Below are positions 5,452-20,512 of a stretch of 64,000 nucleotides of DNA, one piece after another. The DNA is taken from the NCBI GenBank assembly GCA_963705115.1, contig CAVPIX010000010.1, positions 1,165,461-1,229,460 of the forward strand. The letters run 5' to 3'. The stretch is from an uncultured delta proteobacterium (GTDB lineage: Bacteria; Desulfobacterota; Desulfobaccia; Desulfobaccales; 0-14-0-80-60-11). The notes under the pieces were generated by a model. It was given only the letters and a program-made list of their open reading frames with translations. It was not told the DNA's origin and made no database searches. Made by a program: the position numbers and the translations under genes. Position 1 is the stretch's first letter. Each line of letters opens with the position of its first letter.

Positions 5452-6138
5452 ATGGACAATACATCCGCCCGGAATCGACTCGTCGCTGTAATCCGCACAC
5501 TCGCCGCAGAGAAGCATATTGAACTGGAACGGCTTAAAAAGGAACATAGCGGCCTCGCTCGTTCAGACTTCATCTGGCACTACCTCTTGGTAAGCTTCTC
5601 AACAATGGGGCGGGCGTCTGGGTGGCATGGGCTGATCGGCAACAAGAACAACTACCAACGTGTTACCTACAATGTTCTCGCCGCTCTGTCTCCGGAAGCT
5701 CGCAGATCACAGGTAAGACAGGTGTGCAAAGTTGCGGGGATTCGCATGCCGGATAAGAAAGCGGATTACATTCTCGGCTGTTTTGATTATATCAAGCAGC
5801 TCGGTGGGCCGGAGACCACAAAGGCTAAGCTGCTTGCTCAACCGGGCCGAGACGCCAAGATTCGCTTCCTCCAAACTTTCCCCGGTATTGGGCCAAAATA
5901 TGCCCGAAACATAATGATGGACGTTTATCACGAGGACTTTCGGAATAGTATCGCCCTCGATGTTCGTATCAAGGCCATCTCTGACGCCCTCGGTCTGTCG
6001 TTTTCATCTTATGCCGAGCACGAGCAGTTCTACCTCAACGTAGCTCGCAATGCCGGGATCAACGGTTGGGAGTTAGACCGACTGTTGTTCAATTTTCGCG
6101 CTGAGGTGGAGGCGAGCCTTGGGGTTAGAAGAGTATGA
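5452..6138 (+). CDS. HhH-GPD-like (Ogg2/EndoIII-like) DNA glycosylase family protein
   Basis: FPGIGPKYARNIMMDV helix-hairpin-helix followed by IALDVRI (Asp in the position of the catalytic Asp of HhH-GPD enzymes). GGAG RBS. Confidence 0.5.
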   Translation: MDNTSARNRLVAVIRTLAAEKHIELERLKKEHSGLARSDFIWHYLLVSFSTMGRASGWHGLIGNKNNYQRVTYNVLAALSPEARRSQVRQVCKVAGIRMPDKKADYILGCFDYIKQLGGPETTKAKLLAQPGRDAKIRFLQTFPGIGPKYARNIMMDVYHEDFRNSIALDVRIKAISDALGLSFSSYAEHEQFYLNVARNAGINGWELDRLLFNFRAEVEASLGVRRV

Positions 6139-6217
6139 ATGGCCTTAGTGCGTGAAAGAACACAAACATCGATTTTAGACAAGCTCAGCCAGGACCGATG
6201 TATAATTTTGGTTAACA

Positions 6218-7810
6218 ATGAAAAATGGCAAAGACATGAAGAGCCTAATAAATAAATATATTTCTTTGGCCAAAGAAAGCCTCATTCAGCGGGAAGATAC
6301 CTCGACCAACAGAATATCTCTTTTAAAAAGCTGGAAAGATCGATTGCTTGAGAAAGTCGAATACATAGAGTCACATCAAATTTTTGAAGATTTGATTTTT
6401 AGAACTATAGAAGTTTATAGAGATAATTTCTTTAAAGATAATTATCGGGATATTCGGGGTGGGCATATTGAAGATATAACTGCCGAAGATCGTTTACTTG
6501 AAAATGTCGAATATATAGAGTCACATCAAATTGTTACAGATATGATTTCCGGAACTATAGAACTTTATCGGGAAATCCGCGGTGGGCATGTGGAGGATGT
6601 AACCGCCGATTGGGAGATCCTGGTGAAAACTTTTTTTCGTCGTTCCGGATTCTATATTAAGCTTTCCAAGGATGAACCAATTGATATTGATTTGGTTTGT
6701 CATCAATATGATGAAGCATTTACAGCCAAGGAGGTGCCGGTTAGATATTTGGCACCTTTAGAATTTGTTAACTTTTATGATGTTGACAGGCTTAATTTTC
6801 CTTCTTTTTCAATCAGGAGATTTTCTCCACAGGAATTATCAGAGGTAATTAATAATACTGTTAATGAAGTATTTTATCCTGATGCAATTTGGGATTTTGA
6901 TAAATTATCGATGTTCTGGTTTATTGATGTCGTAATTCCTAAAGTAAATACGAACAAATTACTACAGACTAATGATTATTTCGCATACTTCGGAAATTAC
7001 AGGCATGAATCTGACAATTTAGACCCGATTAAAGATGTATTAAAGATATTATCTTTGTTTGATTGGAATTCGATACATAACGATGGCAATTGTCAAGGGT
7101 TTAATGTCCCGTTTGTCAGCCAAGTAGATGAATATTTTCTGGCCTATCCTGATTCATTTCCAATTGGAAAAAAATTAGAAATGGCAAATAGTTACGAGGA
7201 TTTTGACGATGATAATATGCACTACTACCATCATAAAATAATTGGTCGAGAACCTCTTATTTTATGCCAATTAGACGAAAAAAATGTTAACCGATTTATT
7301 GAATTTGTTAGTGTCGTGGACAATCAATTTTCTGACATATGTAAGAAGTGGCCCTTTTATAATAATGCTTTAGAATTTATACTAAAAGCTTTTTTTCATG
7401 ACGACTTCTACAGGCCGATTGACCAATTATTATGGAATATTGTTGCAATAGAAGCTCTATTGGGTGATAAAGGGGAAGGGCTAACTAATAGGTTAGCAGC
7501 TCGGTTGAGTAGAATATTAGCCAAATCTGATGATGTTCGAGATTATATTAAAAAAGAATTTAAGATAATTTATAATTTAAGATGTAACCTTATTCACGGT
7601 AGCTCGTGGGATGAGAAATTAGATAGGAAATATCTTTTTTTAAGTAGGAACTTGGCAAGAAAGGCCAGTATGAAGTTCTTCTATTTATTTGCTTACATTT
7701 CTACATCAGGTCAATTTAATCCAAAAAAACACTCCAGGAAAGAAATATTGTCCTTTATTGATAGTGATCTGATATTCGACGAGAATGGACTGGAAAATAT
7801 ACTTCGTTAA
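6218..7810 (+). CDS. hypothetical protein with C-terminal HEPN-like (Rx4H) domain
   Basis: Strongly AT-rich ORF. C-terminus has LLWNIVAIEALLG...IIYNLRCNLIHGS, an Rx4H motif in a helical context as in Apea/Abi-type HEPN RNases. N-terminus holds a 50-aa tandem repeat. Confidence 0.55.
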   Translation: MKNGKDMKSLINKYISLAKESLIQREDTSTNRISLLKSWKDRLLEKVEYIESHQIFEDLIFRTIEVYRDNFFKDNYRDIRGGHIEDITAEDRLLENVEYIESHQIVTDMISGTIELYREIRGGHVEDVTADWEILVKTFFRRSGFYIKLSKDEPIDIDLVCHQYDEAFTAKEVPVRYLAPLEFVNFYDVDRLNFPSFSIRRFSPQELSEVINNTVNEVFYPDAIWDFDKLSMFWFIDVVIPKVNTNKLLQTNDYFAYFGNYRHESDNLDPIKDVLKILSLFDWNSIHNDGNCQGFNVPFVSQVDEYFLAYPDSFPIGKKLEMANSYEDFDDDNMHYYHHKIIGREPLILCQLDEKNVNRFIEFVSVVDNQFSDICKKWPFYNNALEFILKAFFHDDFYRPIDQLLWNIVAIEALLGDKGEGLTNRLAARLSRILAKSDDVRDYIKKEFKIIYNLRCNLIHGSSWDEKLDRKYLFLSRNLARKASMKFFYLFAYISTSGQFNPKKHSRKEILSFIDSDLIFDENGLENILR

Positions 7811-8280
7811 ATTAGGGCCATAGAGCGGGAAAGAGGTGATAATCGCGGTATTAGCATTACTCGTTTTAACTCATGCCCAAGCTGAGCTTCAGAATGAGAA
7901 AATTCAAAAATCGGATCACTGCTCTATCTCCGCAATGCGCCACCCAGCAGTTGGTGTTCTGATATCCTCACAATATCCAGCAAAATATATCTCGGGGGAG
8001 TAGGAGCCGCCCTCGCTTTGACTCGAAAAGGACCGGCCGCCGGGACGGCGTCAAAAGAAAACAAGATTATAGATTTTGTTTCCTTTTCTCCGGGCCTGAA
8101 AAACCCTCTATAATTTATGAAGGACCCTAATATTCAGCCGCCCTTGGGTGACTTGGGGTCCTGTTTTGCGGGGACGCAATACCTTGCCCCTATCAACAAT
8201 AGAAAAAAACTAATTAATATAGCAGAGTTATCTAAACAGCAGGCTTTTATTTAGGCATTTCATTTGTTTGGCGAGCGCCC

Positions 8281-8682
8281 CTAATCTTCATCGCCGGTGA
8301 GATCGCCGCTTGGCCCCATCCCCGGCCCCATACCCTCTCCCATCTCCCCGCTTGCCATGGCTTCCTCGATCATCTGGTCGATATCCCCGACATCGTCCTC
8401 CCCCATGGCTTCCTTGAGGTGGGGACCCATCTGGCGCATCATGCGGGCCATGCTGGCGGGGTCGTTTTCGTCCAGGTCGGCCAGGCCGCCCCAGCGGTGG
8501 GGGTCGGCCAGGCGCTCCATCCTGGTTTCTTCCGAGAGGCGGACTCGCACTCTGGAGAGCAGCCGCTCCATCTCCGTGCCGCCGCACCGGGGACACACCG
8601 GGGTAAAGGGCGCACTCAGACTCAGGATGAGAAACTCAGACACTTTCCGGCAGGAGGCACAGCGATATTCGTAGATGGGCAT
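8281..8682 (-). CDS. FmdB-family zinc-ribbon protein
   Basis: MPIYEYRCxxC...CPRCG (CxxC-CxxC) N-terminus with an acidic tail. Confidence 0.8.
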   Translation of the reverse strand: MPIYEYRCASCRKVSEFLILSLSAPFTPVCPRCGGTEMERLLSRVRVRLSEETRMERLADPHRWGGLADLDENDPASMARMMRQMGPHLKEAMGEDDVGDIDQMIEEAMASGEMGEGMGPGMGPSGDLTGDED

Positions 8683-8685
8683 AGG

Positions 8686-10098
8686 TCAGTTGGCCACCTT
8701 CACCTTCATTTTTTCCAGGCGGGCTATCTGGGCCTGCACCCGGCTGTAGTGGGGGTCGGTGAGGGGCATGTTGGCCAGGGCCTTCCGGAAGTGAAACAGG
8801 GCCGTGGGGTAGGCCCGGGCCGTCAGGCTGTGCAGCCCCAAGAAATAGTGGGCCGGCCCCAGTCGTCCCTTCTCCCCGTAAAGGGTGCCCAAATTGAGAT
8901 ACACCTCCACCAGGGCCGGGTTCAGGGAATACACCCGTTCCATGGCTGCCAGGGCCAGATCAGTATGTTTCTGTTCCTGGTAGATTCGCCCCAGGTAAAA
9001 AAGGATCACTTCATCCTGAGGGTGGCTCTGACTCAGGCGCATGAGCAGCGGCAGGGCCTCCTGGTAACGGTTCCGATCGAAGTAATTGACTGCCTTTTCC
9101 CGTTGCAGCAGGTAGTTCCCCGGGTCCAGGCTCAAGGCCTGGTTCAGGGCCACCTCCGCTTCTTCGGTGCGGTCCAGGCGGGTTAAAGCCAGGGCTTTGC
9201 CGTATAAATACACCGGGTTTTTCGGCTCACTCTGGGAGGCCTGGGCCATGCGCCGGAAAAGCTGGTGGGGGTTGCCGGAGGTGGCCTCCACCTTTAAGGC
9301 GAAGTAGCTAAAATCAGTAATATTTTCGCCAGCCACAATTTTATTTTCGTGGAGACTGTACTGGTTGGCCAACTCCACCAGCCGTTCATCAGTGTGGGGG
9401 TGAGTGCTCAAGTATTGAGGAATGTCTCCCCCCTGAAACCAGCGTTGTTTGTTCAACTTCTTAAAAACACTGATCATATCCCGGGGGTTGTACCCGGTCT
9501 TGGTCATCAATTTGAAGCCCAAATTGTCCGCTTCATGTTCGTAGTCCCGGCTGTACTTCAGCATGGCGGATACCCCGGCGGCTTGGGCGCCCACCAGCAG
9601 GGCCGCAGCCGCAGGGCCTCCCAGGAGCAAGGCCGCCAGGCTCCCCACCATGGTGGCGATGTTGACGTTCCGGGTTTCTTCCATCTGCCGGGCTATGTGC
9701 CGGGCGGAGATGTGGGAGATTTCGTGGGCCAGCACGCCCACCAACTCCCCTTCCCGGTCCATGGCCCGGATGAACCCGGAGTTGATGAAGATATACCCTC
9801 CCGGCACGGCGAAGGCGTTGAAACTGGGGTCATCTATTACGTAAAAGCGGTATTTATAGGCATGGGCGCCAAGATTGGACTCTATCTTGCGGCCCAGGCG
9901 GTTTATATAGGAGGAAACAAAGGGATCTGTGGAGATGGAGTAATAGTTCTGTATTTCCAGGAAAAACTCTTCCCCGATCTGTCGTTCCTTTTCGATGCTC
10001 AGGGTGTCAAATAACCTGGCGGCGGCCGGGTTGGCGCCCCATGCGAGGCTTGCTGCCAAGAGCCAGACCATCAGCCGCCACCTGGCAAGGTTTTTCAT
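8686..10098 (-). CDS. M48-family Zn metalloprotease with TPR repeats (BepA-like)
   Basis: HEISH (HExxH) motif, signal peptide, C-terminal TPR-like repeats. Start chosen at the ATG preceded by AGGAG; an alternative ATG lies at 10116. Confidence 0.8.
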   Translation of the reverse strand: MKNLARWRLMVWLLAASLAWGANPAAARLFDTLSIEKERQIGEEFFLEIQNYYSISTDPFVSSYINRLGRKIESNLGAHAYKYRFYVIDDPSFNAFAVPGGYIFINSGFIRAMDREGELVGVLAHEISHISARHIARQMEETRNVNIATMVGSLAALLLGGPAAAALLVGAQAAGVSAMLKYSRDYEHEADNLGFKLMTKTGYNPRDMISVFKKLNKQRWFQGGDIPQYLSTHPHTDERLVELANQYSLHENKIVAGENITDFSYFALKVEATSGNPHQLFRRMAQASQSEPKNPVYLYGKALALTRLDRTEEAEVALNQALSLDPGNYLLQREKAVNYFDRNRYQEALPLLMRLSQSHPQDEVILFYLGRIYQEQKHTDLALAAMERVYSLNPALVEVYLNLGTLYGEKGRLGPAHYFLGLHSLTARAYPTALFHFRKALANMPLTDPHYSRVQAQIARLEKMKVKVAN

Positions 10099-10115
10099 AA
10101 GAGGTGCTCCTGGCA

Positions 10116-10529
10116 TCAGGGGCGGGGCTGCTCCTGATGCCGGTTATTGGTAAATTCGGGTAATGGCAGGCGATTGGCCTCCACCCACAAGCCCTCAAGG
10201 TCGTAAAACTCTCGCAGCGGGGTAATAAAGAGGTGAATGACCAGATCGACGTAATCCAGGAGAACCCATTGGCCGTCCTCCAGACCTTCCACGCCCAGGG
10301 GTTTGACGCCGGCCTGCCCCAGGGCTTCCTGCAGATGCTGGGCCAGGGCCTGGACGTGGCGCTTGGAGGTTCCGGAACAGATGATAAAGTAGTCTCCCAG
10401 ACTGGAAAGACCCCTGACGTCAAGAATCACCGGCTCAAGGCCTTTTTGATTCACCAGGGTGCGGGCCGCCATTGCCACCAGCTCTTCGGCGGTTAGGGAT
10501 GTCTTTTGAGGTTTGCTGACCGTTCTCAC
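10116..10529 (-). CDS. rsfS: ribosome silencing factor RsfS
   Basis: DYFIICSGTSKRHVQA...DYVDLVIHLF is an iojap/RsfS signature. GTG start immediately after the nadD stop. Confidence 0.8.
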   Translation of the reverse strand: MRTVSKPQKTSLTAEELVAMAARTLVNQKGLEPVILDVRGLSSLGDYFIICSGTSKRHVQALAQHLQEALGQAGVKPLGVEGLEDGQWVLLDYVDLVIHLFITPLREFYDLEGLWVEANRLPLPEFTNNRHQEQPRP

Positions 10530-10530
10530 C

Positions 10531-11189
10531 TTATGCTTTATATAAATTATTTTTAAGTATAAATCGGCGCACATTCTCCGGCAAGAGATATCGGATGGAT
10601 CTCCCCTCTGCCGCCAGCTTGCGGATGCGAGTGGCGGAGATGTCCAGGAGAGTGGTGGCCAAAAGCAGCACCCGGCAGCCCGTTGGATGCTGAAAGCCCC
10701 CTCCCCCGGCCAGGGGTTGAAACCCCGGGTGGACCTCCTGTTTGAGAACCTTGGCTAAATGCGCCGGGTCATAGCCGGGGCGGTCCAACACCACAAAATG
10801 GCTGAGGGTGAACAGTTCCCGGTAATCTTTCCAGGAGGCGATTTCCAAAATCGCGTCCAGGCCGACGATGAAAAAAAGTTCCTGTTCCGGGCCGAACTCT
10901 TCCCGCAGATAGCGCAAGGTTTCAATGGAATAGGATTTGCCGGGCCGCCGTCCCTCCAGATCCGAGACCGCAAAGCGGGGGTGCCGGCCCACCGCCAGCC
11001 GGGTCATGGCCAGCCGCACCTCAAAGGGAGTAACCTGGGCCGGGGCTTTGTGGGGGGGAGCGCGGCGGGCATAAACCAGATCTTATCAAGGTTCAGGGCC
11101 TCGGCCACTTCCTCCGCGGACCGCAAGTGCCCATAATGAATGGGATTGAAGGTCCCGCCGAACAACCCCAGGCGCTTTGGCTTTTTCAT
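10531..11189 (-). pseudogene. nadD: nicotinate-nucleotide adenylyltransferase NadD, interrupted by a -1 frameshift in a homopolymer
   Basis: [12 protein letters not shown] at the N-terminus. The expected PPHK motif is reached only after shifting frame at the G7 run (11052-11058, C7 on the coding strand). The two ORFs 11004..11189 and 10531..11019 join into one NadD. Confidence 0.8.
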
Positions 11190-11207
11190 TCTTGGATTGG
11201 GTTTGGT

Positions 11208-11395
11208 GGGGGGAGGGCCAGGGAGCGGTGGCTCCCTGCCCTCCCCCCATACCCCCCTCCCAACCCTTTAGTGGGCCTGAAAATTTAGGACCATGGGTCC
11301 CGAATTTCCAGGCAGATAAATACCCCCATCAAGGGATTGGGGGAGGGGGCGTGGGGGAGGGGGTAAGGGGCCACCGCCCCTTAGCCCCCTCCCCC
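11208..11395. repeat. two long G/C-run hairpin elements in the nadD-proA spacer
   Basis: GGGGGGAGGGCCAGGGAGC..GCTCCCTGCCCTCCCCCC (11208-11248) and GGGGGAGGGGG..CCCCCTCCCCC (11339-11395). Confidence 0.6.
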
Positions 11396-11402
11396 AAAAA
11401 CC

Positions 11403-12660
11403 TTAAGTTCTAATTTGCCCTGAACCATAAACTATGAACTTGGTGGTGGTCAGTTCTTCCAGGCTCATGGGTCCGAAGGCGTGGAGTTTGCTGGTGGAAA
11501 TGCCGATCTCGGCGCCCAGCCCCAGCTCGCCGCCGTCGTTGAAGCGGGTGGAGGCGTTCACCAGGACCACCGAGGAGTCCACCTCCCGAAGGAAGCGCTG
11601 GGCCCGGTCGTAGTCCCGGGTCAGGATGGCCTCGGTGTGGTTGGAGCTGTACTGGGCGATGTGGCCCAGGGCCGCGTCCAGGTCGGGGACCACCTTGACG
11701 GCCAGGATCAAATCCAGAAACTCATAGCCCCAGTCCTCCTCCTGGGCCGGCTTCACCTGGGGGTCGATCTTCTGGGTGGCCGGGCAACCCCGGAGTTCCA
11801 CCTCGGCCTCCCGGAAGCGGGCGTGCATGCGTGGGATGAAAGTCGGCGCGATTTTCTCATGGACCAGCATGGTCTCCATGGCGTTGCACACCCCGGGGCG
11901 CTGCACCTTGGCGTTGAAGCACACCGTTTCCGCCAGGTCCGGGTCGGCGCCCTCGTCCACGAAGATGTGGCACACCCCCTTGTAGTGCTTGAGGACCGGG
12001 ATGCGGGAGTTTTCCGCCACAAAGCGGATGAGGCCCTCGCCCCCCCGGGGGATGATGAGGTCCACCAGTTCGTCCTGCTTCAGCAGCTCCAAGGTGGCCT
12101 CCCGGGCGACGCTGGGGATGACCTGCACCGCGCCCGCGGGGATGTTGAACTCACTCAAGGCGTCCTGCATGAGCTTGGCCAGGGCCAGGTTCGAGTGCAG
12201 GGCCTCCTTCCCCCCTTTGAGGATAACGCTGTTGCCGCTTTTGAGGCAAAGCGACGGCCGCGTCCACCGTGACGTTGGGCCGGGACTCGTAAATAAAGCC
12301 GATGACCCCCAGGGGGATGCGCACCCGCCCCACGAGCAAACCGTTGGGCCGCCGCCACATCTTCACCACTTCCCCCACCGGGTCGGGGAGAGCCGCCACT
12401 TCCTCCAGGGCCTTGACCATGGAGGCCATGACCTTGTCGGACAGGGTCAGCCGGTCGATGAACGCGGCCGGGTGCCCCTCGGCCTTGGCCTTCTCCACAT
12501 CCTTGGCGTTCTCCGCCTGGATCTCGGCCTGCCGTTCCTTGAGGAGCGCCGCCATGCGCAGGAGCACCTGGTCCTTGACGCCCCGGGACAGATTCCCCAG
12601 GGGCCGGGCCGCCGCTTTGGCCTCAAGGGCAAAATTTGTTACGACTTCGGCTACATTCAT
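11403..12660 (-). pseudogene. proA: gamma-glutamyl phosphate reductase ProA, interrupted by a frameshift
   Basis: ORF 12151..12660 ends ...[12 protein letters not shown]. The continuation [22 protein letters not shown]... is in another frame and leads into ORF 11403..12170. An extra base lies near 12254-12258. Confidence 0.8.
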
Positions 12661-12683
12661 TTCGTCTCCAAGAATACTTGTAA

Positions 12684-14372
12684 TTATGACATTCCGAGCC
12701 TATACGGATCTCTAATCCACTGAGCGATATTTTTTATGAAATCCCAGACATCGCCTTGCCCTGGCTTAACATAATTCCCAGAATCTGGGTCACTTCCCAT
12801 TTTCTCAAAAATATCGACTAGCCATTCAGGCCCATGTCCTTTGGCGTTAAGGCTTTTCAACCATGCCTCGAGCTCTCCATTTGGAACTACAAAAATACCA
12901 TATTTTGCTAAGCTGGATAAAAGACTTAAAACTATCTCATTTTCTTTGGCATCTAATTTATTGATTCCCTCTTTCTTTGGATTTAGACCTTTCTTCTCAA
13001 AGAGCTTATAGCTCTCTCCTCGGAGAGTACCCCATGTATTTATGAGTTCTTGTGGAACATTACAATTTTTAAGCAAATTCTTAAGCTCATCACCCTTTTT
13101 AATTATATCAAGGTCAACTATTGCAGCGGCAGATATTCCCATTTCTCTTAGTGGTCCAACGATATTTTTTATCGTCTGTTTATTTTGGGCATTTAAAAAA
13201 ATACAATTATCTAAACCACCTTTTTGGAAAGAAAGTAGTCTCCCATTAATTTCTTGGTAGAAGACTCTATCAGTATCAGCCTCGCAAATTATGGCGCTTT
13301 CATGAAATAAGGCGCTCAGTACGCCACTAGAACGCATCAATGGGTCTCTCATTATCAATTGAAGTTTTTCTGACGAAAGAAGGCGAGCAGTTGCAATTCC
13401 ACCGGAGTATGTCAATCTAATAATATTGACGGGCTTCCCTGATTGAACACATCCCATTAAAAAATCTGAACTGTGAGTTGCTGCAAATACATTAGCCTTC
13501 CTCTCAGTAGCAATTCTGGCAAGATAATTTCCCAGTTTCCTAATTAAAGGTGGGTGTAAAAATGCTTCTGGCTCATCAATCAAAATAATTTTAAAATCAG
13601 AACTCAATAGAGCAGATATTATTCCTGTGTAAGCTTTTATCCCGTCACTCAATTCAGCAATCTCAAAAGCATTCGCATGAAAAGCTCGTGCTCTCTCATC
13701 TAATGCTTGTTCTTCAAGTGAATCTGACGGTTCCTGCAGTGACATTCTTATACGAAATTTGTTCATTCCTGTTGGATCTATTGTAAAATATAATCCAAAG
13801 GCATCCGCTGTAATATTACGAATAGTTATTCTTGATTCTTCATCTTTAAATAAAGACATCAAGTGACTGGTAGATTCTCTTTGTAAATCACCAGATGGCC
13901 TATCATCAGTAAGCGAAAACCGTGTTCTGCCATCAAGTCTTATTGTAAATAAATTAATGAGATTACTACATATGACTCCTAATAAATTGCTATTAAGATT
14001 TTTATTATATTCTTCTACAAGACGTAACAAATCATTTAAAGGAATCTCATGTCTATCAATCCTACCTTCTATTAACTGTATTTTGCCAATTAAGATATTT
14101 CCTTCCCTAATATTTTCATTAGGCAATGGCAGAAGAGATTTTGATAAAAGTATTTCTCTGACTTTATCCTTATTTGGCAAAATATAATCAATATTATCAA
14201 TTATCTTTCTATTTTCTACGGGACCCATTCTTGAAAAGGTCTCGATTTCTCGTAAAATAAGACTTTTCCCTGAATTATTAGGACCAACAAAAACTGTTAC
14301 TCCTCCAGGTTTAAACGCAAGAGGTTGGGAACTTAATTGCTGGCCAAATTTTAATTTAATCTCGTCAATCAT
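12684..14372 (-). CDS. ABC-type ATPase fused to a Toprim/DUF4435-like nuclease domain (OLD-family / GajA / fused AriA-AriB-like)
   Basis: Walker A GPNNSGKS, signature-like LSDGIK, Walker B ILIDEPEAFLHP, ATHS. C-terminal part has CEADTD, IVDLDII (DxD) and VVPNGELEAWL. Strongly AT-rich versus its flanks. Confidence 0.6.
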   Translation of the reverse strand: MIDEIKLKFGQQLSSQPLAFKPGGVTVFVGPNNSGKSLILREIETFSRMGPVENRKIIDNIDYILPNKDKVREILLSKSLLPLPNENIREGNILIGKIQLIEGRIDRHEIPLNDLLRLVEEYNKNLNSNLLGVICSNLINLFTIRLDGRTRFSLTDDRPSGDLQRESTSHLMSLFKDEESRITIRNITADAFGLYFTIDPTGMNKFRIRMSLQEPSDSLEEQALDERARAFHANAFEIAELSDGIKAYTGIISALLSSDFKIILIDEPEAFLHPPLIRKLGNYLARIATERKANVFAATHSSDFLMGCVQSGKPVNIIRLTYSGGIATARLLSSEKLQLIMRDPLMRSSGVLSALFHESAIICEADTDRVFYQEINGRLLSFQKGGLDNCIFLNAQNKQTIKNIVGPLREMGISAAAIVDLDIIKKGDELKNLLKNCNVPQELINTWGTLRGESYKLFEKKGLNPKKEGINKLDAKENEIVLSLLSSLAKYGIFVVPNGELEAWLKSLNAKGHGPEWLVDIFEKMGSDPDSGNYVKPGQGDVWDFIKNIAQWIRDPYRLGMS

Positions 14373-15520
14373 CCGTTGCCGAATTCCGGAAAGATCACCA
14401 GGTTGTCCCGGTGGATGACTTCGTCCGCGTCGGTGTGGCCCAAAGCCTGGGCGATCTCCTGGGTCTGTTTGCCCTTGATGCGGTTGATGTCCCGGGAGGA
14501 ATAGTTGCTCAGGCCCACCGCAAAAGTTTGGCCTTCCGGGTCCATGAGGCTCACCGGCGCGCCCTTGCGGAAGCCGCCGAAAACTTCGAGGATGCCCGCC
14601 GGCAGCAGGCTTTTCCCCATGCGCACCAGGGCCTCCCGGGCGCCGAGGTCCACCAGGATGGCGCCTTTGGGGGCCACGTTGTAGGCCAGCCAGTATTGGC
14701 GGCTGGAGAGTTTTTGGGTTTGGGGCAGAAAGAACGTACCCACTTCTTGGCCGCCAAAAATCTCCCCCAGAATGCCGGGGCGCCGGCCGTTGGCGATGAG
14801 GCTGGGAACCCCGGCCGCGGCCGCCTTCTTCACGGCCTGAAGCTTGCTGACCATGCCCCCGGTGCCCAGCTCATTGGGGCGCTCTCCGGCTGCGGTGGCC
14901 AGCCGCGGATCACTGGTTTCCAGAAAGGTCAGCAGGGGCGCGTCCGGGTCCTCCCGGGGGTCCCGGGCATAGAGGCCCTCGGTGTTGGTGAGCAGAATCA
15001 ATAAATCCGCCTCCACCAGGTTGGAGATGAGCGCGGCCAGGTGGTCGTTGTCCCCGAATTTCAGTTCGTCGGTGGCCACCGTGTCGTTTTCGTTGATGAT
15101 GGGGACCACGCCCCACTGGAGGAGGGTGAACAGGGTGTTTTTGGCGTTGACGAAGCGGCCCCGGGCGGCCAGGTCGTCGTGGCTCAGGAGGATTTGGGCC
15201 ACCTTGAGGTCATGGGCGGCAAAGGCCTCTTCATAGGTCTGTATCAGGGTGCTCTGCCCCACCGCAGCCACGGCCTGCACCTGGGGCATGCTGGCCGGGC
15301 GCAGACAGATGCCCAGTTTTCTCAAGCCGGCGGACACCGCGCCCGAGGATACCATGACAAACTGGTGCTCGGTTTGCCGCAACCCGGCGATTTCTTTCAC
15401 CAGGCGCTGGATGAGGGGCAGGTTCAAGCCATCGGCGGCGGTGAGTACTGAGCTTCCCAGCTTCAGGACCACCCGCCGGGCTTTTTGCAGATATTGTTGG
15501 CGAGGACTACCGGCGTGCAC
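14369..15520 (-). CDS. proB: glutamate 5-kinase ProB (with PUA domain)
   Basis: RVVLKLGSSVLT N-terminus, amino-acid kinase fold motifs, C-terminal PUA-like region. Confidence 0.9.
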   Translation of the reverse strand: MHAGSPRQQYLQKARRVVLKLGSSVLTAADGLNLPLIQRLVKEIAGLRQTEHQFVMVSSGAVSAGLRKLGICLRPASMPQVQAVAAVGQSTLIQTYEEAFAAHDLKVAQILLSHDDLAARGRFVNAKNTLFTLLQWGVVPIINENDTVATDELKFGDNDHLAALISNLVEADLLILLTNTEGLYARDPREDPDAPLLTFLETSDPRLATAAGERPNELGTGGMVSKLQAVKKAAAAGVPSLIANGRRPGILGEIFGGQEVGTFFLPQTQKLSSRQYWLAYNVAPKGAILVDLGAREALVRMGKSLLPAGILEVFGGFRKGAPVSLMDPEGQTFAVGLSNYSSRDINRIKGKQTQEIAQALGHTDADEVIHRDNLVIFPEFGNG

Positions 15521-15639
15521 GTGTCATTACCCGAAATATGCAAAGATGTGAAGACATTATACCGGATAATGTGGGTGTCGGGGGGATTAAATTTTCACAA
15601 AAAACAAGTTTGGCAATCTCTGAGGAAGCAGGGGACGCT

Positions 15640-16695
15640 TCAGGGCCGGGAGAAGGGGGCGTCATCCTCCCTTTCGGCTGCGGCATCTTCCGGGTGACGG
15701 GCCGCCACTTCGGCCAGGACTTGCCGCAACTCCGGCAGGCCTTCGCCGGTGTGGGCCGAAATCACCAGGGGGTCTTCCCCGGCCTGCCGGTAGGCGGCCA
15801 CCACCTGGTCCAGGGGGAAATCCGGCGGCACAAGGTCCTTTTTATTCAAAACCACCCAGCGGGGTCTTTTGAGCAACTCGGGATCAAAGGCCTGCATCTC
15901 CCGCTCCAAAGCTTTTAAGGGGGCCAGAGGGTTTTTCGGGTCCACCTGGGTCACGTCCAGGAGCACCAGCAAAAGCCGGGTGCGACGCAAATGACGCAGG
16001 AACCGGTGCCCCAGGCCTTTGCCTTTGTGGGCGTCGGCGATCAACCCGGGGATTTCCGCCACCACCAGGGGCTCCCGGTCTTCAAGATAGACCACCCCCA
16101 ACTGGGGGCTGAGCGTGGTAAAAGGAAAATCGCCCACCCGGGCCTGGGACGCGGTGAGGGCTCTCAAGAGGGTGGTCTTGCCGGCATTGGGCGCGCCCAT
16201 GAAGCCCACATCGGCCAAAATCTGGAGTTCCAGGCGCAGGCGCCGGCTCTCCCCCTGTTCCCCCGGCTGGGAAAAGCGGGGCGAGCGCATTCGGGACGAG
16301 GTGAAATGGGCGTTGCCCTTGCCGCCGCGGCCCCCTTTGGCCGCGACCAGGCGCTCTCCGGGCTTCAGCAACTCGGCCAGGAGTTTGCCGGATTCCAGGT
16401 CATACACCAGGGTGCCCAGGGGTACGCGCACCGGGAGAGTGGGACCGCTTTTGCCCAGGCGGTCCTGACCATGCCCGGCCTGACCGTTATCGGCCTGGAA
16501 CAAACGCCGCCGCTTAAAATAAGCCAGGGTGCGTTCGTGAGAAGAGGCCTCTAAGATGACATCCCCGCCCGAGCCCCCGTTGCCGCCGTCGGGGCGGCCC
16601 CGGGGTTGAAAGCGGGCCCGACGGAAGCTTACGCAGCCTGCGCCGCCGGCGCCCCCTTGGACAGTGATCTCCGCCTCATCGGGGAAGGATTTCAA
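15640..16695 (-). CDS. obg: GTPase Obg/CgtA
   Basis: Gly-rich Obg fold ([13 protein letters not shown]...[10 protein letters not shown]) and G1 motif [11 protein letters not shown]. Confidence 0.9.
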
Positions 16696-16949
16696 GCGAT
16701 GGGGTGAACGCTGACCCTTTTGCGGTCTTTGCCGAAAGCCTCAAAGGCCACCACGCCGTCGATCTTGGCGAACAAGGTGAAGTCTCGGCCCAAGCCCACA
16801 TTGAGCCCTGGGTGGATGCGGGTGCCCACCTGGCGTACCAGGATGTTGCCGGCTTTTACCTGCTGGCCGGCATAGCGTTTGACGCCCCGGCGCTTCCCGG
16901 CACTATCCCTGCCGTTGCGGGAACTCCCGCCTGCTTTTTTGTGTGCCAC
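16692..16949 (-). CDS. rpmA: 50S ribosomal protein L27
   Basis: [16 protein letters not shown]... is the canonical L27 N-terminus. Confidence 0.95.
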
Positions 16950-17009
16950 GGTTATATCTCCCGTTCAAGTGTTGCTCAAAAGGGCAAGTCTTGCCGCCCT
17001 CTCTGGCGC

Positions 17010-17321
17010 TCACACCTGAATATCTTTAATCTCTAAGGCGGTGTAAAGTTGGCGGTGGCCCTGCTTGCGACGGTACTTTTTCCGGCGCTTTTTCTTGAAG
17101 ACAATGATCTTCTTGCCTTTGCCCTGCCGCACAATCTCACTCAACACCCGGGCCCCGGCCACCAGGGGTTGGCCCACCTGGATGGCTTCAGCGTCGGCTA
17201 CCAGGAGCACCTGCTCCAGCAGCACTTCATCGCCCCGCTCTCCGGGGAGGCGTTCCACCCGGAGAATGTCTCCCGGGGAGACCCGGTATTGTTTCCCGCC
17301 AGTTTGAACAATGGCGAACAA
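17010..17321 (-). CDS. rplU: 50S ribosomal protein L21
   Basis: FAIVQTGGKQYRV signature. Start set at the TTG preceded by GGAGG, so shorter than the 112-aa track ORF. Confidence 0.9.
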   Translation of the reverse strand: MFAIVQTGGKQYRVSPGDILRVERLPGERGDEVLLEQVLLVADAEAIQVGQPLVAGARVLSEIVRQGKGKKIIVFKKKRRKKYRRKQGHRQLYTALEIKDIQV

Positions 17322-17351
17322 GGTAACCTCCAGAGAAAATCTAACCAAAAA

Positions 17352-17379
17352 ATATTACAATTTTTAAAATTTTTGTCAA
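17352..17379 (-). promoter_or_regulatory. sigma70-like promoter of rplU-rpmA-obg
   Basis: On the minus strand: TTGACA, 16-nt spacer, TAATAT, about 30 nt upstream of the rplU start. Confidence 0.55.
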
Positions 17380-17512
17380 CCTTCTTTTGATAACCGCTCT
17401 ATAAATCACTCTGTCTCCAAGTCCTAAACAGCAAGGGCGGCCTGGATGTAGTCCTTACCCTTTTACGTTATAATTGCTGAAAAATACATGGCTTAAGACA
17501 AGGAGTCGGAGT

Positions 17513-17842
17513 TTGGAAATCGCCAAGTCTCTTTTTTATTTCCTGGTTGCCGGACTGTGCGAAATAGGCGGAGGGTATTTAGTCTGGCTCTGGCTGCGGG
17601 AAGGCCACAAATTCTGGGTTGCCCTCTTGGGAGCTGTTGTCCTTATCATGTATGGAGTCGTGCCCACCCTTCAACCTGCCCACTTTGGCCGGGTCTATGC
17701 TGCTTACGGCGGCGTTTTCATCGTTCTCTCCATTCTCTGGGGGTGGCAGGTTGACAAGATAATGCCGGATAGATTTGACCTCATGGGAGGGGCTCTCGCT
17801 TTGGCTGGTGTCTTTGTTATTATGTACTGGCCAAGGGTATAA
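17513..17842 (+). CDS. ynfA: YnfA-family (UPF0060) small membrane protein
   Basis: [17 protein letters not shown]...[12 protein letters not shown] matches the YnfA family. TTG start after AGGAG. Confidence 0.75.
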
Positions 17843-17995
17843 CCCTCCGGCCCATTCCATCTTTTCCCTTTCCGACCCTCTTTACCCGTTTCAATTCAGG
17901 TTGTTGACAGGGCCTACGGGGCGGATTAAGATGCATCTGACCGAAAAAAAACCTGTCCACCTAAAGTTTAAGAATTCAGAGCCCTCCTGACAGAT

Positions 17996-20512
17996 ATGAT
18001 ATCGCCAACCAAAGAAAAAGCCGTGGGCTATGTGGTCATCCATGGCCATTTTTACCAGCCCCCCCGGGAAAATCCCTGGATTGAGAAGATCGAAGAGGAG
18101 GTCAGCGCCCGCCCCTTTCATGACTGGAACAGCCGGATAACCGCGGAGTGCTATAATCCCAACAGTTGCGCCCGCATCTATGACGGCGACCGCCGCATCC
18201 TGGATATTGTCAATAATTACGAAAAAATCAGTTTCAACTTCGGGCCCACCCTGCTCGCCTGGCTGGAGGTGCACGCCCCCGCCACCTACCAGCGCCTGCT
18301 GGCCGCGGACCGCCAGAGCCTGGCCCGCCTAAGGCACGGCAATGCCATCGCCCAGGTCTACAACCACATCATCCTGCCCCTGGCCAACGCCCGGGACCGG
18401 GAAACCGAGGTGATTTGGGGGCTCAAGGATTTTCAGCACCGCTTCGGCCGGGAGCCCGAGGCCATGTGGCTGCCGGAAACTGCGGTGGATTATCCCACCC
18501 TGGCCACCCTGGCGGACCACGGCATGAAGTATGTCATCCTGTCCCCCTACCAGGCCCGCCGGGTGCGTCCCCTGGAGGGCGGCGCCTGGGAAAACGTCCA
18601 GGCCCGCACCCTGGACACCACCCAGGCCTACCGCTGTTTTCTGCCCACTAGTTCCGGCGCCCCGGACGATAGCCGGTACATCGACGTGTTCTTTTACGAC
18701 GGCGAGGTGGCCTCAGACATGAGCTTCGGGAATCTCCTGAAGGACAGCAAAGACATCGTGGGCCGCCTGGAGGCCGGCTTCCGGCCTGACCTGTCCCGGC
18801 CTCAGCTCCTGAACGTAGCCACTGATGGTGAAAATTACGGGCATCATCACATGTGGGGGGAATTGGCCCTGGCCTATGCCCTGGAAAAGGTTTTTCCCCA
18901 GCGTGGCTTTGTCCTGACCAACTATGCCGCTTTTCTGGAAGCCGCGCCCCCCCGGATTCGGGTGGAATTGGAGATGGGCCCCAAAAAGGAAGGCAGCGCT
19001 TGGAGTTGCGCCCATGGGGTGGGACGCTGGAAAGAGGACTGCGGTTGCTCCACGGGCGGCCTCCCCAACTGGAACCAACGGTGGCGAACCCCTCTCCGGG
19101 AAGCCTTTGATTTCCTGAATGACCGCCTGGCCCATATTTATGAGGAGGAAAGCGCCCGCTACCTCAAAGACCCCTGGGCCGCCCGCAACGACTATATTGA
19201 GGTCATCCTGGACCGCCGGGAGGAAACCATTGAGCAGTTTTTTTCCCGGCACGCGGTCAATGATTTGGCTCCCCAGGCCTGGTTGCACCCGCTGCGGCTG
19301 TTGGAGATGCAGCGCCATACCCTGTTGATGTACACGAGCTGCGGCTGGTTTTTTACGGATCTCTCGGGTCTGGAAACCATCCAGATCATGAAATACGCGG
19401 CCAGGGCCCTGCAACTGGGCACCTATCTCACCCATGAGCCCCTGGAGGAGCCCTTTCTCAAGATTCTGGAGCAGGCCCAGAGCAACATCCCCGAAGAAGG
19501 CAACGGCCGGGATATTTTTGTGCGCCGGGTCAAGCCCGCGGTGGTGGACTTCCACAAGGTGGCCAACCAATGGGCCATTTCCTGGCTCAAGGACCGGGAG
19601 CATAAGTGCCCCCACCACATTTATCACTTTCGGGTGAAGCCCCTGGATCTGGAGGTGCAAACCCAGGGGACCCTGGACCTGGCCAGCGGCCGCCTGCAAG
19701 TGACCTCGGGCGTCACCTGGCGGCAAGAGATCCTGAGCTTTTTCACGGTTCATCTAGGAAGTTACCTCTACCGTACCCAAATTGTCCAGAACCAGGACTC
19801 CGAAGACTTCCTGGCGCTGAACCGGGAATTATTCCGTGTCCTTAACCAGACCCCGGAAAATCTTATCCCTTCTTTAGCCGGCCGCCTGGGTGAACGCTAT
19901 TACACGGTGCACGATATTTTCCAGGAAGAAAAAGAGCAGATTTTTCAGGACCTGCTGGCGGAGAATCGGGAAGATGCCCTGGCCGATCTGGCGCACCATT
20001 TCAGCAATGCGGCCCCTGTCTTGCGGGCTATGGCAACGGAAGGCCTCCCCCTTCCCCGTCTTTATGAAGTCCTCGGGGAGATTACCTTAAACCGCCGCCT
20101 GGTGACCATCCTGCGCAGCCTGGAGCCTCAGCCGGAGCTGTTGCCCGACTCGGAGGAGATGCAGGAGCTGCTCCAGGAAGCAATGCTGTTCAAATTCAAG
20201 CTGGAGTCCCACGAAGGCGCGCATATTCTGCGCCGGATTTTAGACCACCTGCTCATGGACCTGGCCTCGGAGTTTAACCAGGGGACCGCGGACACCCTGA
20301 TGGAATTCCTCACCGTGCAGCAGGGCATCCCCATCACCCTGGATACCACCGAAGCCCAGAACTTTTTCTTCGGTTTCATGAAGGAACATTTTCCTGCCCA
20401 GGCGGCCCGGGCTGCCAGGGACCCCCAGGTCCGGCGCCTGGCGGACGCCCTGGTCCGGATTGCTGAAGCCCTGAAATTCAGCCCTGAGCCTTATCAGCGC
20501 CTGTTGGTTTGA
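17996..20512 (+). CDS. glycoside hydrolase family 57 protein with DUF3536-like C-terminal domain
   Basis: HGHFYQPPRENPW N-terminal GH57 signature. Length of 838 aa. Confidence 0.8.
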   Translation: MISPTKEKAVGYVVIHGHFYQPPRENPWIEKIEEEVSARPFHDWNSRITAECYNPNSCARIYDGDRRILDIVNNYEKISFNFGPTLLAWLEVHAPATYQRLLAADRQSLARLRHGNAIAQVYNHIILPLANARDRETEVIWGLKDFQHRFGREPEAMWLPETAVDYPTLATLADHGMKYVILSPYQARRVRPLEGGAWENVQARTLDTTQAYRCFLPTSSGAPDDSRYIDVFFYDGEVASDMSFGNLLKDSKDIVGRLEAGFRPDLSRPQLLNVATDGENYGHHHMWGELALAYALEKVFPQRGFVLTNYAAFLEAAPPRIRVELEMGPKKEGSAWSCAHGVGRWKEDCGCSTGGLPNWNQRWRTPLREAFDFLNDRLAHIYEEESARYLKDPWAARNDYIEVILDRREETIEQFFSRHAVNDLAPQAWLHPLRLLEMQRHTLLMYTSCGWFFTDLSGLETIQIMKYAARALQLGTYLTHEPLEEPFLKILEQAQSNIPEEGNGRDIFVRRVKPAVVDFHKVANQWAISWLKDREHKCPHHIYHFRVKPLDLEVQTQGTLDLASGRLQVTSGVTWRQEILSFFTVHLGSYLYRTQIVQNQDSEDFLALNRELFRVLNQTPENLIPSLAGRLGERYYTVHDIFQEEKEQIFQDLLAENREDALADLAHHFSNAAPVLRAMATEGLPLPRLYEVLGEITLNRRLVTILRSLEPQPELLPDSEEMQELLQEAMLFKFKLESHEGAHILRRILDHLLMDLASEFNQGTADTLMEFLTVQQGIPITLDTTEAQNFFFGFMKEHFPAQAARAARDPQVRRLADALVRIAEALKFSPEPYQRLLV

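Follow-up and report, generated by a model that had tools for sequence, protein, structure and literature searches.

OLD-family proteins are sorted into classes by gene neighborhood: Class 1 OLDs are encoded by a single gene, Class 2 OLDs by a gene that accompanies a UvrD-like helicase gene (Gabija), Class 3 OLDs by a gene that accompanies a reverse transcriptase and a noncoding RNA (retron), and Class 4 OLDs are the split or fused AriA/AriB (PARIS) (PMC12392090; PMC10568477). Class 1 OLDs, including P2 Old, Thermus scotoductus OLD (Ts OLD), and Vibrio cholerae OLD (Vc OLD), are usually solitary amid non-defense genes (PMC10568477), so a lone OLD gene between housekeeping genes is the expected pattern. 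Through ATP-dependent, regulated nicking or exonuclease activity, these proteins block phage genome replication in an abortive-infection-like protection of the population (PMC12392090; PMC10568477), and their anti-phage activity depends on the Walker A, Walker B, and DxD motifs (PMC12392090). We analyzed a stretch of 64,000 nucleotides (nt) from an uncultured delta proteobacterium (contig CAVPIX010000010.1), which we call the window, where a single gene lies between the proline biosynthesis genes proB and proA. All positions are window coordinates unless a locus of a relative (L001, L002, and so on) is named. The best explanation as a whole, which we consider probable, is that this gene is a Class 1 OLD that resides in a hotspot of variable cargo, is expressed from the surrounding operon, and has been resident there for a long time.

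The order of genes around the OLD gene is rplU-rpmA-obg-proB-OLD-proA-nadD-rsfS, and the OLD gene, its flanks, and its two junctions are as follows.

12684..14372, minus strand: putative Class 1 OLD-family ATPase-Toprim nuclease gene, an open reading frame (ORF) of 562 amino acids (aa) plus stop with an ATG start, assigned from PADLOC, Pfam, AlphaFold, and Foldseek
14369..15520, minus strand: proB (glutamate 5-kinase), upstream flank of the slot; an ORF with a cluster-mate so named and with AA_kinase and PUA domains in orthologues
14369..14372, minus strand: ATGA overlap of the OLD start ATG with the proB stop TGA, read from the sequence
12661..12683, minus strand: 23-nt spacer TTACAAGTATTCTTGGAGACGAA, containing GGAG, between the OLD TAA stop and the proA ATG (12660), read from the sequence
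11403..12660, minus strand: proA (gamma-glutamyl phosphate reductase), flanking the slot downstream; one extra base breaks its frame

The ORF, its coordinates, its AT-rich composition, the gene order, and both junctions had been described in a first-pass annotation made by a model from the letters alone, and all of these were borne out when we re-read the sequence. The start codon is confirmed by an N terminus, MI(D/N/K)E(I/L)xLKFG, that is conserved among homologues. Every motif quoted in that annotation is also present in the protein, including IVDLDII at aa 418-424; the others are listed below with their conservation among 40 homologues.

13323..14372, minus strand: ABC-type ATPase region at the N terminus, aa 1-350, containing a helical/beta insertion; matched by AAA_21, AAA_15, and, in Foldseek, SMC/Rad50 heads
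14262..14285, minus strand: Walker A motif GPNNSGKS, aa 30-37, with K36; at least 90% conserved
13635..13652, minus strand: ABC signature-like motif LSDGIK, aa 241-246; D243 and G244 invariant
13551..13586, minus strand: Walker B motif and D-loop ILIDEPEAFLHP, aa 263-274 (D266, E267); D266-E267-P268-E269-A270-F271-L272 invariant, aligning to Ts OLD 6p74
13470..13481, minus strand: H-loop ATHS, aa 298-301; T299 and H300 invariant
13107..13310, minus strand: Toprim core, aa 355-422, with E364, D366, and D368 (CEADTD, aa 363-368) plus D420-x-D422; matched by PF20469, acidic residues invariant
12858..12890, minus strand: C-terminal acidic motif VVPNGELEAWL, aa 495-505; E502 invariant

Profile searches and structure prediction agree with the ABC-ATPase plus OLD-like Toprim architecture that the motifs had indicated. 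In Pfam, the protein matches AAA_21 (2e-19), AAA_15 (8e-13), and OLD-like_TOPRIM (PF20469), the last over model positions 1-67 of 67 with 24.5 bits versus a gathering score of 23.2, and PF20469 matches 40/40 homologues (best 1.3e-8). The best PADLOC profile is Old (1.3e-26), while AriA, GajA, PtuA, and others match more weakly and over the ATPase part only. An AlphaFold2 model from a 40-sequence alignment has a predicted local distance difference test score (pLDDT) of 91.8 and a predicted template modeling score (pTM) of 0.89. In Foldseek against the Protein Data Bank (PDB), full-length matches are the retron-Eco8 effector 9lp9_B (2.4e-11), Ts OLD 6p74 (3.5e-10), and GajA (~5e-8), with a probability of 1.00 for 9lp9_B, 6p74, and 8x5i (580-680 aligned columns), and the ATPase half is also matched by SMC and Rad50 heads. 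A sequence search of the PDB finds 6p74 at 5.7e-4 with the single sequence and 1.5e-7 with a profile, in an alignment that spans the Walker A and Walker B regions only. Judged by its sequence and its modeled fold, the gene is predicted to encode an OLD-family ABC-ATPase/Toprim nuclease.

The OLD gene, whose neighbors are proB and proA, has neither a helicase nor a reverse transcriptase beside it, and no Toprim protein encoded separately, just as the first-pass annotation had found no helicase or second subunit nearby; no Rfam family reaches its gathering score in 8000-20000; and distant members of the subfamily have unrelated neighbors with no recurring partner. With proB and proA as neighbors, no partner gene, and no Rfam RNA, the gene fits the definition of Class 1, and we assign it as a putative Class 1 OLD nuclease whose activity is predicted by homology. 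The suggestion that it might be an undescribed stand-alone variant does not hold, since a single-gene ATPase-Toprim protein is a Class 1 OLD by definition (PMC12392090; PMC10568477). The window OLD has more than 3900 homologues, many of them full-length at 46-61% identity in Vibrio, Teredinibacter, Longimicrobium, Gemmatimonadota, and cyanobacteria, and those that carry a name are annotated as "ATP-dependent nuclease/endonuclease" or "AAA family ATPase." The subfamily is thus large, widespread, and uncharacterized.

Cluster-mates of ProB and Obg place the host among Desulfobaccales-like Thermodesulfobacteriota. The two nearest homologues of the window OLD are in related Desulfobaccales-like metagenome genomes, and both occupy the same position. 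P0011 (80% identity, locus L001) and P0002 (61% identity, locus L002) each lie on a metagenome contig in the same rpmA-obg-proB-X-proA-nadD-rsfS string, where X is the OLD gene. A ProB-based scan of species-representative genomes gave 18 further clade loci (72-95% ProB identity) plus outgroups, and a window-type OLD was found in 0/18 of the further clade loci, so that OLD lies between proB and proA in 3 of the ~21 sampled genomes (window, L001, and L002). The proB-proA gap ranges from 209 to 3437 bp across the 18 further relatives, that is, from near-empty to cargo-bearing, and is at most 92 bp in the outgroups (Desulfobulbaceae and others). Comparing this spacing among relatives had been proposed as a way of finding an empty site; the outgroups do have a short gap, and in relatives the same slot is near-empty or holds OLD or other cargo. 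That cargo comprises the following genes, by locus and in locus coordinates, and all of the annotated cargo genes share their strand with proB and proA.

L004, L005, L009, L010, L011: DUF4160 and DUF2442 pair, or DUF2442 alone (L005 has a DUF2442-like remnant only; L009 and L010 are without DUF4160)
L009, L010, L011, L013, L015, L016, L018: HEPN and nucleotidyltransferase pair (L013 has the nucleotidyltransferase only)
L017 (8272-9318), L019 (6609-7811): TIR-domain proteins of low GC, two different proteins
L020 (8244-10032): ParA-like ATPase and RelA/SpoT-domain protein, low GC
L004, L009: Trypsin-TPR protease, then a low-GC ORF without family (L004 9815-10462, L009 3844-4434; 196-215 aa)
L007, L013, L015, L019: IS200-like RAYT (Y1_Tnp) transposase
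L002, L010, L012, L013, L015, L016, L017, L018, L019: small DUF2007 gene, mostly in clade B

From this comparison, we conclude that the proB-proA spacer is a lineage-specific, operon-internal hotspot of variable toxin and defense cargo in the Desulfobaccales-like clade, and the OLD gene is not the one-off wedge in a core operon that it had seemed to be from the window alone. The slot cargo of L004 (9815-10462), L009 (3844-4434), L017, L019, and L020 has a GC content of 0.29-0.39, and these AT-rich genes are candidates for uncharacterized defense or toxin modules. In some clade-B relatives, the DUF2007 gene lies directly 5′ of proA, and in L002 (4727-6283) and L012 (8250-8819) it is called or reads in frame as an N-terminal extension of ProA. 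We count about nine independent cargo modules (at least 9 different ones in 21 genomes), and by our estimate the chance that nine modules would all be co-oriented with the operon is ~0.002 if orientation were a coin flip, which fits cargo that is bound not to interrupt operon transcription. Three more contigs stop just past proB (L003, L008, and L014), and in L003 (7242-7277) the contig stops 35 nt after proB at a perfect 11-bp hairpin, CGTTCCCAAGC-AGGA-GCTTGGGAACG. These contig ends suggest assembly breaks at a site that is strain-variable or bordered by repeats.

The simplest account of how the slot turns over would be homologous recombination within the core genes on either side. No att-like direct repeats were found at the boundaries of the OLD insert in a repeat search, and no integrase lies in the window; the only repeat that spans the boundaries is a 14-nt inverted pair, 93% complementary, at 12620-12633 (proA 5′ end) and 14468-14481 (proB 3′ region), whose bracketing of the insert is probably a chance match. 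G-rich palindromes resembling repetitive extragenic palindromic (REP) elements border the slot in several relatives, and the same element is found in the window at one position.

11353..11395, no strand: G-rich, REP-like palindrome between proA and nadD; this element also borders the cargo slot in relatives

The palindrome, GGGGGAGGGGG(C)TAAGGGGC...GCCCCTTAGCCCCCTCCCCC, is repeated in spacers between genes of the operon, directly after proB or proA, and occurs in L002 (~2931), L004 (~8172 and ~11778), L005 (~8146), L008 (~6803), L014 (~4589), L017 (~8207 and ~11189), L001 (~5709), and L006 (~9607). A REP/RAYT system may contribute to the turnover of the slot.

The three OLD genes in the slot share a history with their hosts. 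They are monophyletic among the closest 60 homologues, with the topology ((window, L001), L002), and this tree mirrors the two host subclades in the ProB and Obg trees. The ATGA junction of L001 is identical to that of the window and is paired with a 21-nt GGAG spacer (23 nt in the window), and the L002 junction differs: there, OLD is preceded by a REP element and followed by DUF2007. When the window is compared with L001, the OLD genes have a nonsynonymous divergence (dN) of 0.129 and a synonymous divergence (dS) of 0.85, for a dN/dS of 0.15, and the flanking genes have dS values of 0.71 (proB), 0.80 (obg), and 0.64 (proA); against L002, the dS of OLD is saturated (~2.3-2.6). Because the dS of OLD is equal to that of the flanks and its dN/dS is 0.15, the gene matches the host split in age and has evolved under purifying selection. 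Thus, OLD was at the slot before the window and L001 split and was probably there before the split from L002; most relatives have lost it or had it replaced.

The composition of the OLD gene is far from that of its operon. Its GC is 0.355 versus 0.639 for proB and 0.645 for proA, and GC in sliding windows falls to 0.30-0.38 exactly across the OLD ORF. At third codon positions (GC3), OLD has 0.26 in the window, 0.24/0.29 in L001, and 0.23 in L002, and the flanks have 0.73-0.88 (0.77-0.88 for the window flanks). A codon adaptation index (CAI)-like score is 0.38 for OLD versus 0.68-0.80 for the flanks, and rare codons number 73 in OLD versus 6 in proB. By parsimony, with L002 as the outgroup, we polarized third-position changes along the branches that lead to the window and to L001. 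For OLD, AT→GC changes occur at 0.090/site and GC→AT changes at 0.143/site, which implies an equilibrium GC3 of 0.39 or lower, and for the flanking genes the rates are 0.21-0.28/site and 0.05-0.08/site, respectively, which implies an equilibrium GC3 of 0.74-0.83. Parsimony with a saturated outgroup pulls both estimates toward 0.5, which makes the contrast between OLD and its flanks a conservative one. AT-richness across the whole family was considered and rejected, because members of the subfamily elsewhere have a GC of 0.32-0.71, usually just 0.03-0.10 below that of their own flanks. The GC deficit of ~0.28 is extreme and maintained; it reflects an equilibrium specific to this gene and is not the mark of a recent transfer. 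This AT-richness, kept without drift to the host composition while synonymous sites turned over substantially or fully, is the most unusual feature of the gene.

These data bear directly on whether the gene is a recent foreign acquisition, an AT-rich cassette from a low-GC donor that has not yet drifted to the composition of its host. The first-pass annotation had taken the AT-richness as the sign of an acquired gene, and such an acquisition would account for a GC deficit of 0.28-0.29 relative to the flanks, for the poor codon fit to the host, and for the absence of OLD in most relatives. It would not account for a dS of 0.85 between the window and L001, equal to the 0.64-0.80 of the flanks, for an identical ATGA junction in L001, for three orthologous copies in one slot that form a single clade in agreement with the host clades, or for the low equilibrium GC3 that is implied for OLD itself. 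Recent acquisition is largely refuted already, and we regard it as highly improbable.

A second possibility is repeated independent capture, in which an AT-rich mobile pool supplied the same slot with a different OLD allele in each of three lineages. The three copies are mutually closest among more than 3900 homologues, their next relatives lie in unrelated contexts with a GC of 0.45-0.55, and the window and L001 share an exact junction and match the flanking dS, all of which speaks against separate captures even though OLD is scattered patchily over the host tree, the slot plainly takes many different cargos, the composition is persistently AT-rich, and the L002 junction differs, with its REP element upstream and DUF2007 downstream. 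We consider independent capture quite unlikely, and long residence in the slot remains our preferred explanation.

There are two candidate explanations of why the composition of OLD is maintained. The high GC of the core genes may be upheld by selection or biased gene conversion that does not act on a patchy, weakly expressed OLD, with mutation itself being AT-biased, or AT-rich rare codons may be selected in order to hold a toxic nuclease at low levels. Carried further, the slot might be an integrase-free, operon-riding site for defense genes with AT-rich codons as a throttle, or else a natural experiment in opposite compositions; taken jointly, we think this whole reading unlikely. If the operon-riding reading were true, promoter-less cargo would always be inserted co-directionally and be expressed by read-through and by start/stop coupling to a housekeeping gene, and if the throttle were true, a GC3 of ~0.25 would be actively kept through synonymous saturation in an operon with a GC3 of ~0.8. 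If the alternative were true, two genes on one transcript and in one replication context would be evolving toward opposite compositions, with the high GC of the core gene held by selection or biased gene conversion against AT-biased mutation.

Several points weigh against a long-resident, operon-expressed Class 1 OLD. In the window protein, the PF20469 score is just 1.3 bits over threshold, and in the Foldseek alignments to characterized OLDs the TM-scores are 0.34-0.44 at ~15% identity, with the low TM-scores presumably due to the orientation of the domains relative to one another. For the subfamily to which the window OLD belongs, nuclease and anti-phage function are predicted by homology, co-transcription and translational coupling are deduced from geometry, and the polarization of third-position changes is noisy with a saturated outgroup. 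The sister of the window, L003 (95% ProB identity), has TAA and a hairpin after proB and no ATGA, and the nearest relatives of L001 (L004, L006, and L009) carry other cargo or almost none; with such a patchy distribution on the host tree, vertical descent needs several independent losses or replacements. The assembly itself is frame-broken in proA and nadD, which makes sequence quality or operon integrity uncertain. In comparison with five relatives, proA has one extra base near 12245-12250 that divides it into ORFs of 169 aa and 255 aa, and nadD has a C7 run near 11060-11075 where relatives have C8, a single-base frame break. Because nadD is normally essential, we judge that these indels, on a metagenome contig of 1.55 Mb, are probably long-read assembly errors, with real pseudogenization the less likely reading. 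The first-pass claim that the insertion preserves the operon holds only if these frame breaks are assembly errors. Lastly, in L001 the Toprim-coding part of OLD is interrupted by an in-frame TAG (L001 3861-3863) that follows "FYQEIN" near codon 377 and leaves a 376-aa ATPase-only product. The protein cluster of this truncated product has 7 member sequences, so the TAG is probably real. The Toprim domain of E. coli YbjD is reported to be dispensable for YbjD phenotypes (2026 note, PMC13261556).

The TAG in L001 also indicates that at least one lineage can do without OLD. This speaks against a housekeeping role and thus touches a third explanation, namely that the gene has a cellular function other than defense, be it in DNA repair, replication, or the cell cycle (like archaeal Cran1) or in responding to stress in connection with the proline operon. 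Long retention at a dN/dS of 0.15 and expression hard-wired to a housekeeping operon are what such a role would predict, and an OLD-family ATPase, Cran1, is reported to have a cell-cycle role in an archaeon (PMC12796447). Against it stand, besides the L001 nonsense codon, the toxin-antitoxin, TIR, and other defense-type genes that fill the same slot elsewhere, the presence of relatives on viral contigs, and the rarity of OLD among related genomes. An old housekeeping component, as the first-pass annotation had framed it, would be the same gene with native GC in all relatives; OLD is found in only 3 of the ~21 genomes and never at native GC. A cellular role is in our estimation very unlikely, and we return to the Class 1 OLD as a defense gene.

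Relatives of the OLD gene do occur in mobile and viral contexts. In IMG/VR, 54 viral or prophage contigs encode OLD relatives, one near relative adjoins a PIN/HicB pair, and in a collection of phage GenBank records there is one weak partial match, in a Mycobacterium prophage at 31% identity. In a BFVD fold search, P2 Old was not among the top 50, and the best full-length matches were giant-virus "ATP-dependent endonucleases."

By homology, the window OLD would be a stand-alone anti-phage system of the abortive-infection type. The ATPase head would bind and hydrolyze ATP by means of K36, D266/E267, and H300 and serve as a regulatory or sensing module, and E364, D366, D368, D420, D422, and E502 would bind divalent metal ions so that the Toprim domain could nick or degrade DNA. 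This nicking or degradation would block replication of the phage genome, as in Vc OLD and P2 Old. As for expression, the junctions leave no room for a promoter or terminator belonging to OLD, so its transcription would depend on read-through from the rplU-rpmA-obg-proB-proA operon. That it is co-transcribed with the proline genes, which had been thought probable, is very likely from geometry alone, and the ATGA overlap suggests that translation of OLD may be coupled to that of proB. Its very poor codon fit probably holds the level of OLD low. The best candidate for the promoter of the operon lies upstream of rplU.

17352..17379, minus strand: TTGACA-16-TAATAT, the best match to a sigma-70-like site, located upstream of rplU; a candidate for the operon promoter by consensus match only

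In the promoter and terminator scan, site counts were not clearly over those of shuffled controls, and the matches within the AT-rich OLD gene are probably compositional.

None of these findings overturns current understanding. To our knowledge, phenotypes among Class 1 OLDs are so far limited to P2 Old, Vc OLD, and E. coli YbjD, and the present work adds to this class a large, taxonomically broad, and uncharacterized subfamily. It also indicates that a core biosynthetic operon can harbor an AT-rich gene over a long period, which corrects the shortcut that low GC means recent transfer. Finally, the compact proB-proA hotspot could be mined for new toxin and defense genes, several of which are low-GC ORFs without a family match.

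A second island of low GC (0.31-0.43) lies ~5 kb from the OLD gene, at 5452-7810 on the plus strand. It contains ORFs at 5452-6138 (228 aa) and 6218-7810 (530 aa), neither of which matches Pfam or PADLOC, and it may be another accessory or defense-like insertion.

Among the known systems, Gabija GajA (Class 2) shares with the window OLD the ATPase-Toprim architecture and the fold (8x5i, 8u7i, and 8sm3), and PADLOC GajA profiles match the ATPase part, although at 1e-9 to 1e-11 they score far more weakly than Old at 1e-26. The window OLD is without a GajB (UvrD-like) helicase and has proA 23 nt downstream instead; with no gajB helicase gene adjacent, we rejected a Gabija assignment. The retron-Eco8 effector (Class 3) is the best Foldseek match (9lp9_B, 2.4e-11), and NCBIfam retron_eff_Eco8 gives a weak partial match (27 bits versus a cut-off of 250), but there is no reverse transcriptase ORF or msr/msd RNA near the window OLD, and the window protein is ~180 aa shorter. 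PARIS (Class 4) is alike in that the ATPase part matches AriA profiles at 2e-19 and unlike in that the fused AriAB profile is matched only at positions 332-416 of 694, an ATPase segment. The nuclease half had been thought compatible with a DUF4435 domain of the PARIS AriB type, but a Pfam scan of the OLD protein with E up to 1 gave no match to DUF4435 (AriB-type Toprim), and the Toprim domain fits the OLD-like PF20469, so this assignment was also rejected.

The closest likeness is to the Class 1 OLDs (P2 Old, Ts OLD 6P74, and Vc OLD), with which the window gene shares an ABC ATPase and a Toprim acidic cluster on one polypeptide, the lack of a partner gene, a solitary position among non-defense genes, and matches to the PADLOC Old profile and the 6P74 fold. 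It differs from them in its sequence, being ~15% identical to 6P74 in the Foldseek alignment, and in its setting: the window OLD lies within a biosynthetic operon with a start/stop overlap, whereas P2 Old lies in a prophage and Vc OLD in an integrase-bearing phage-defense element. The proB-proA slot in turn can be compared with core-gene-flanked defense hotspots. Unlike these, it is internal to an operon, very small (1-4 genes), and without an integrase, having instead a RAYT gene and REP-like palindromes in some genomes, and all of its cargo is co-oriented. Like them, it has conserved flanks (proB and proA) around variable cargo that is rich in toxin-antitoxin and defense genes and whose content differs between close relatives.

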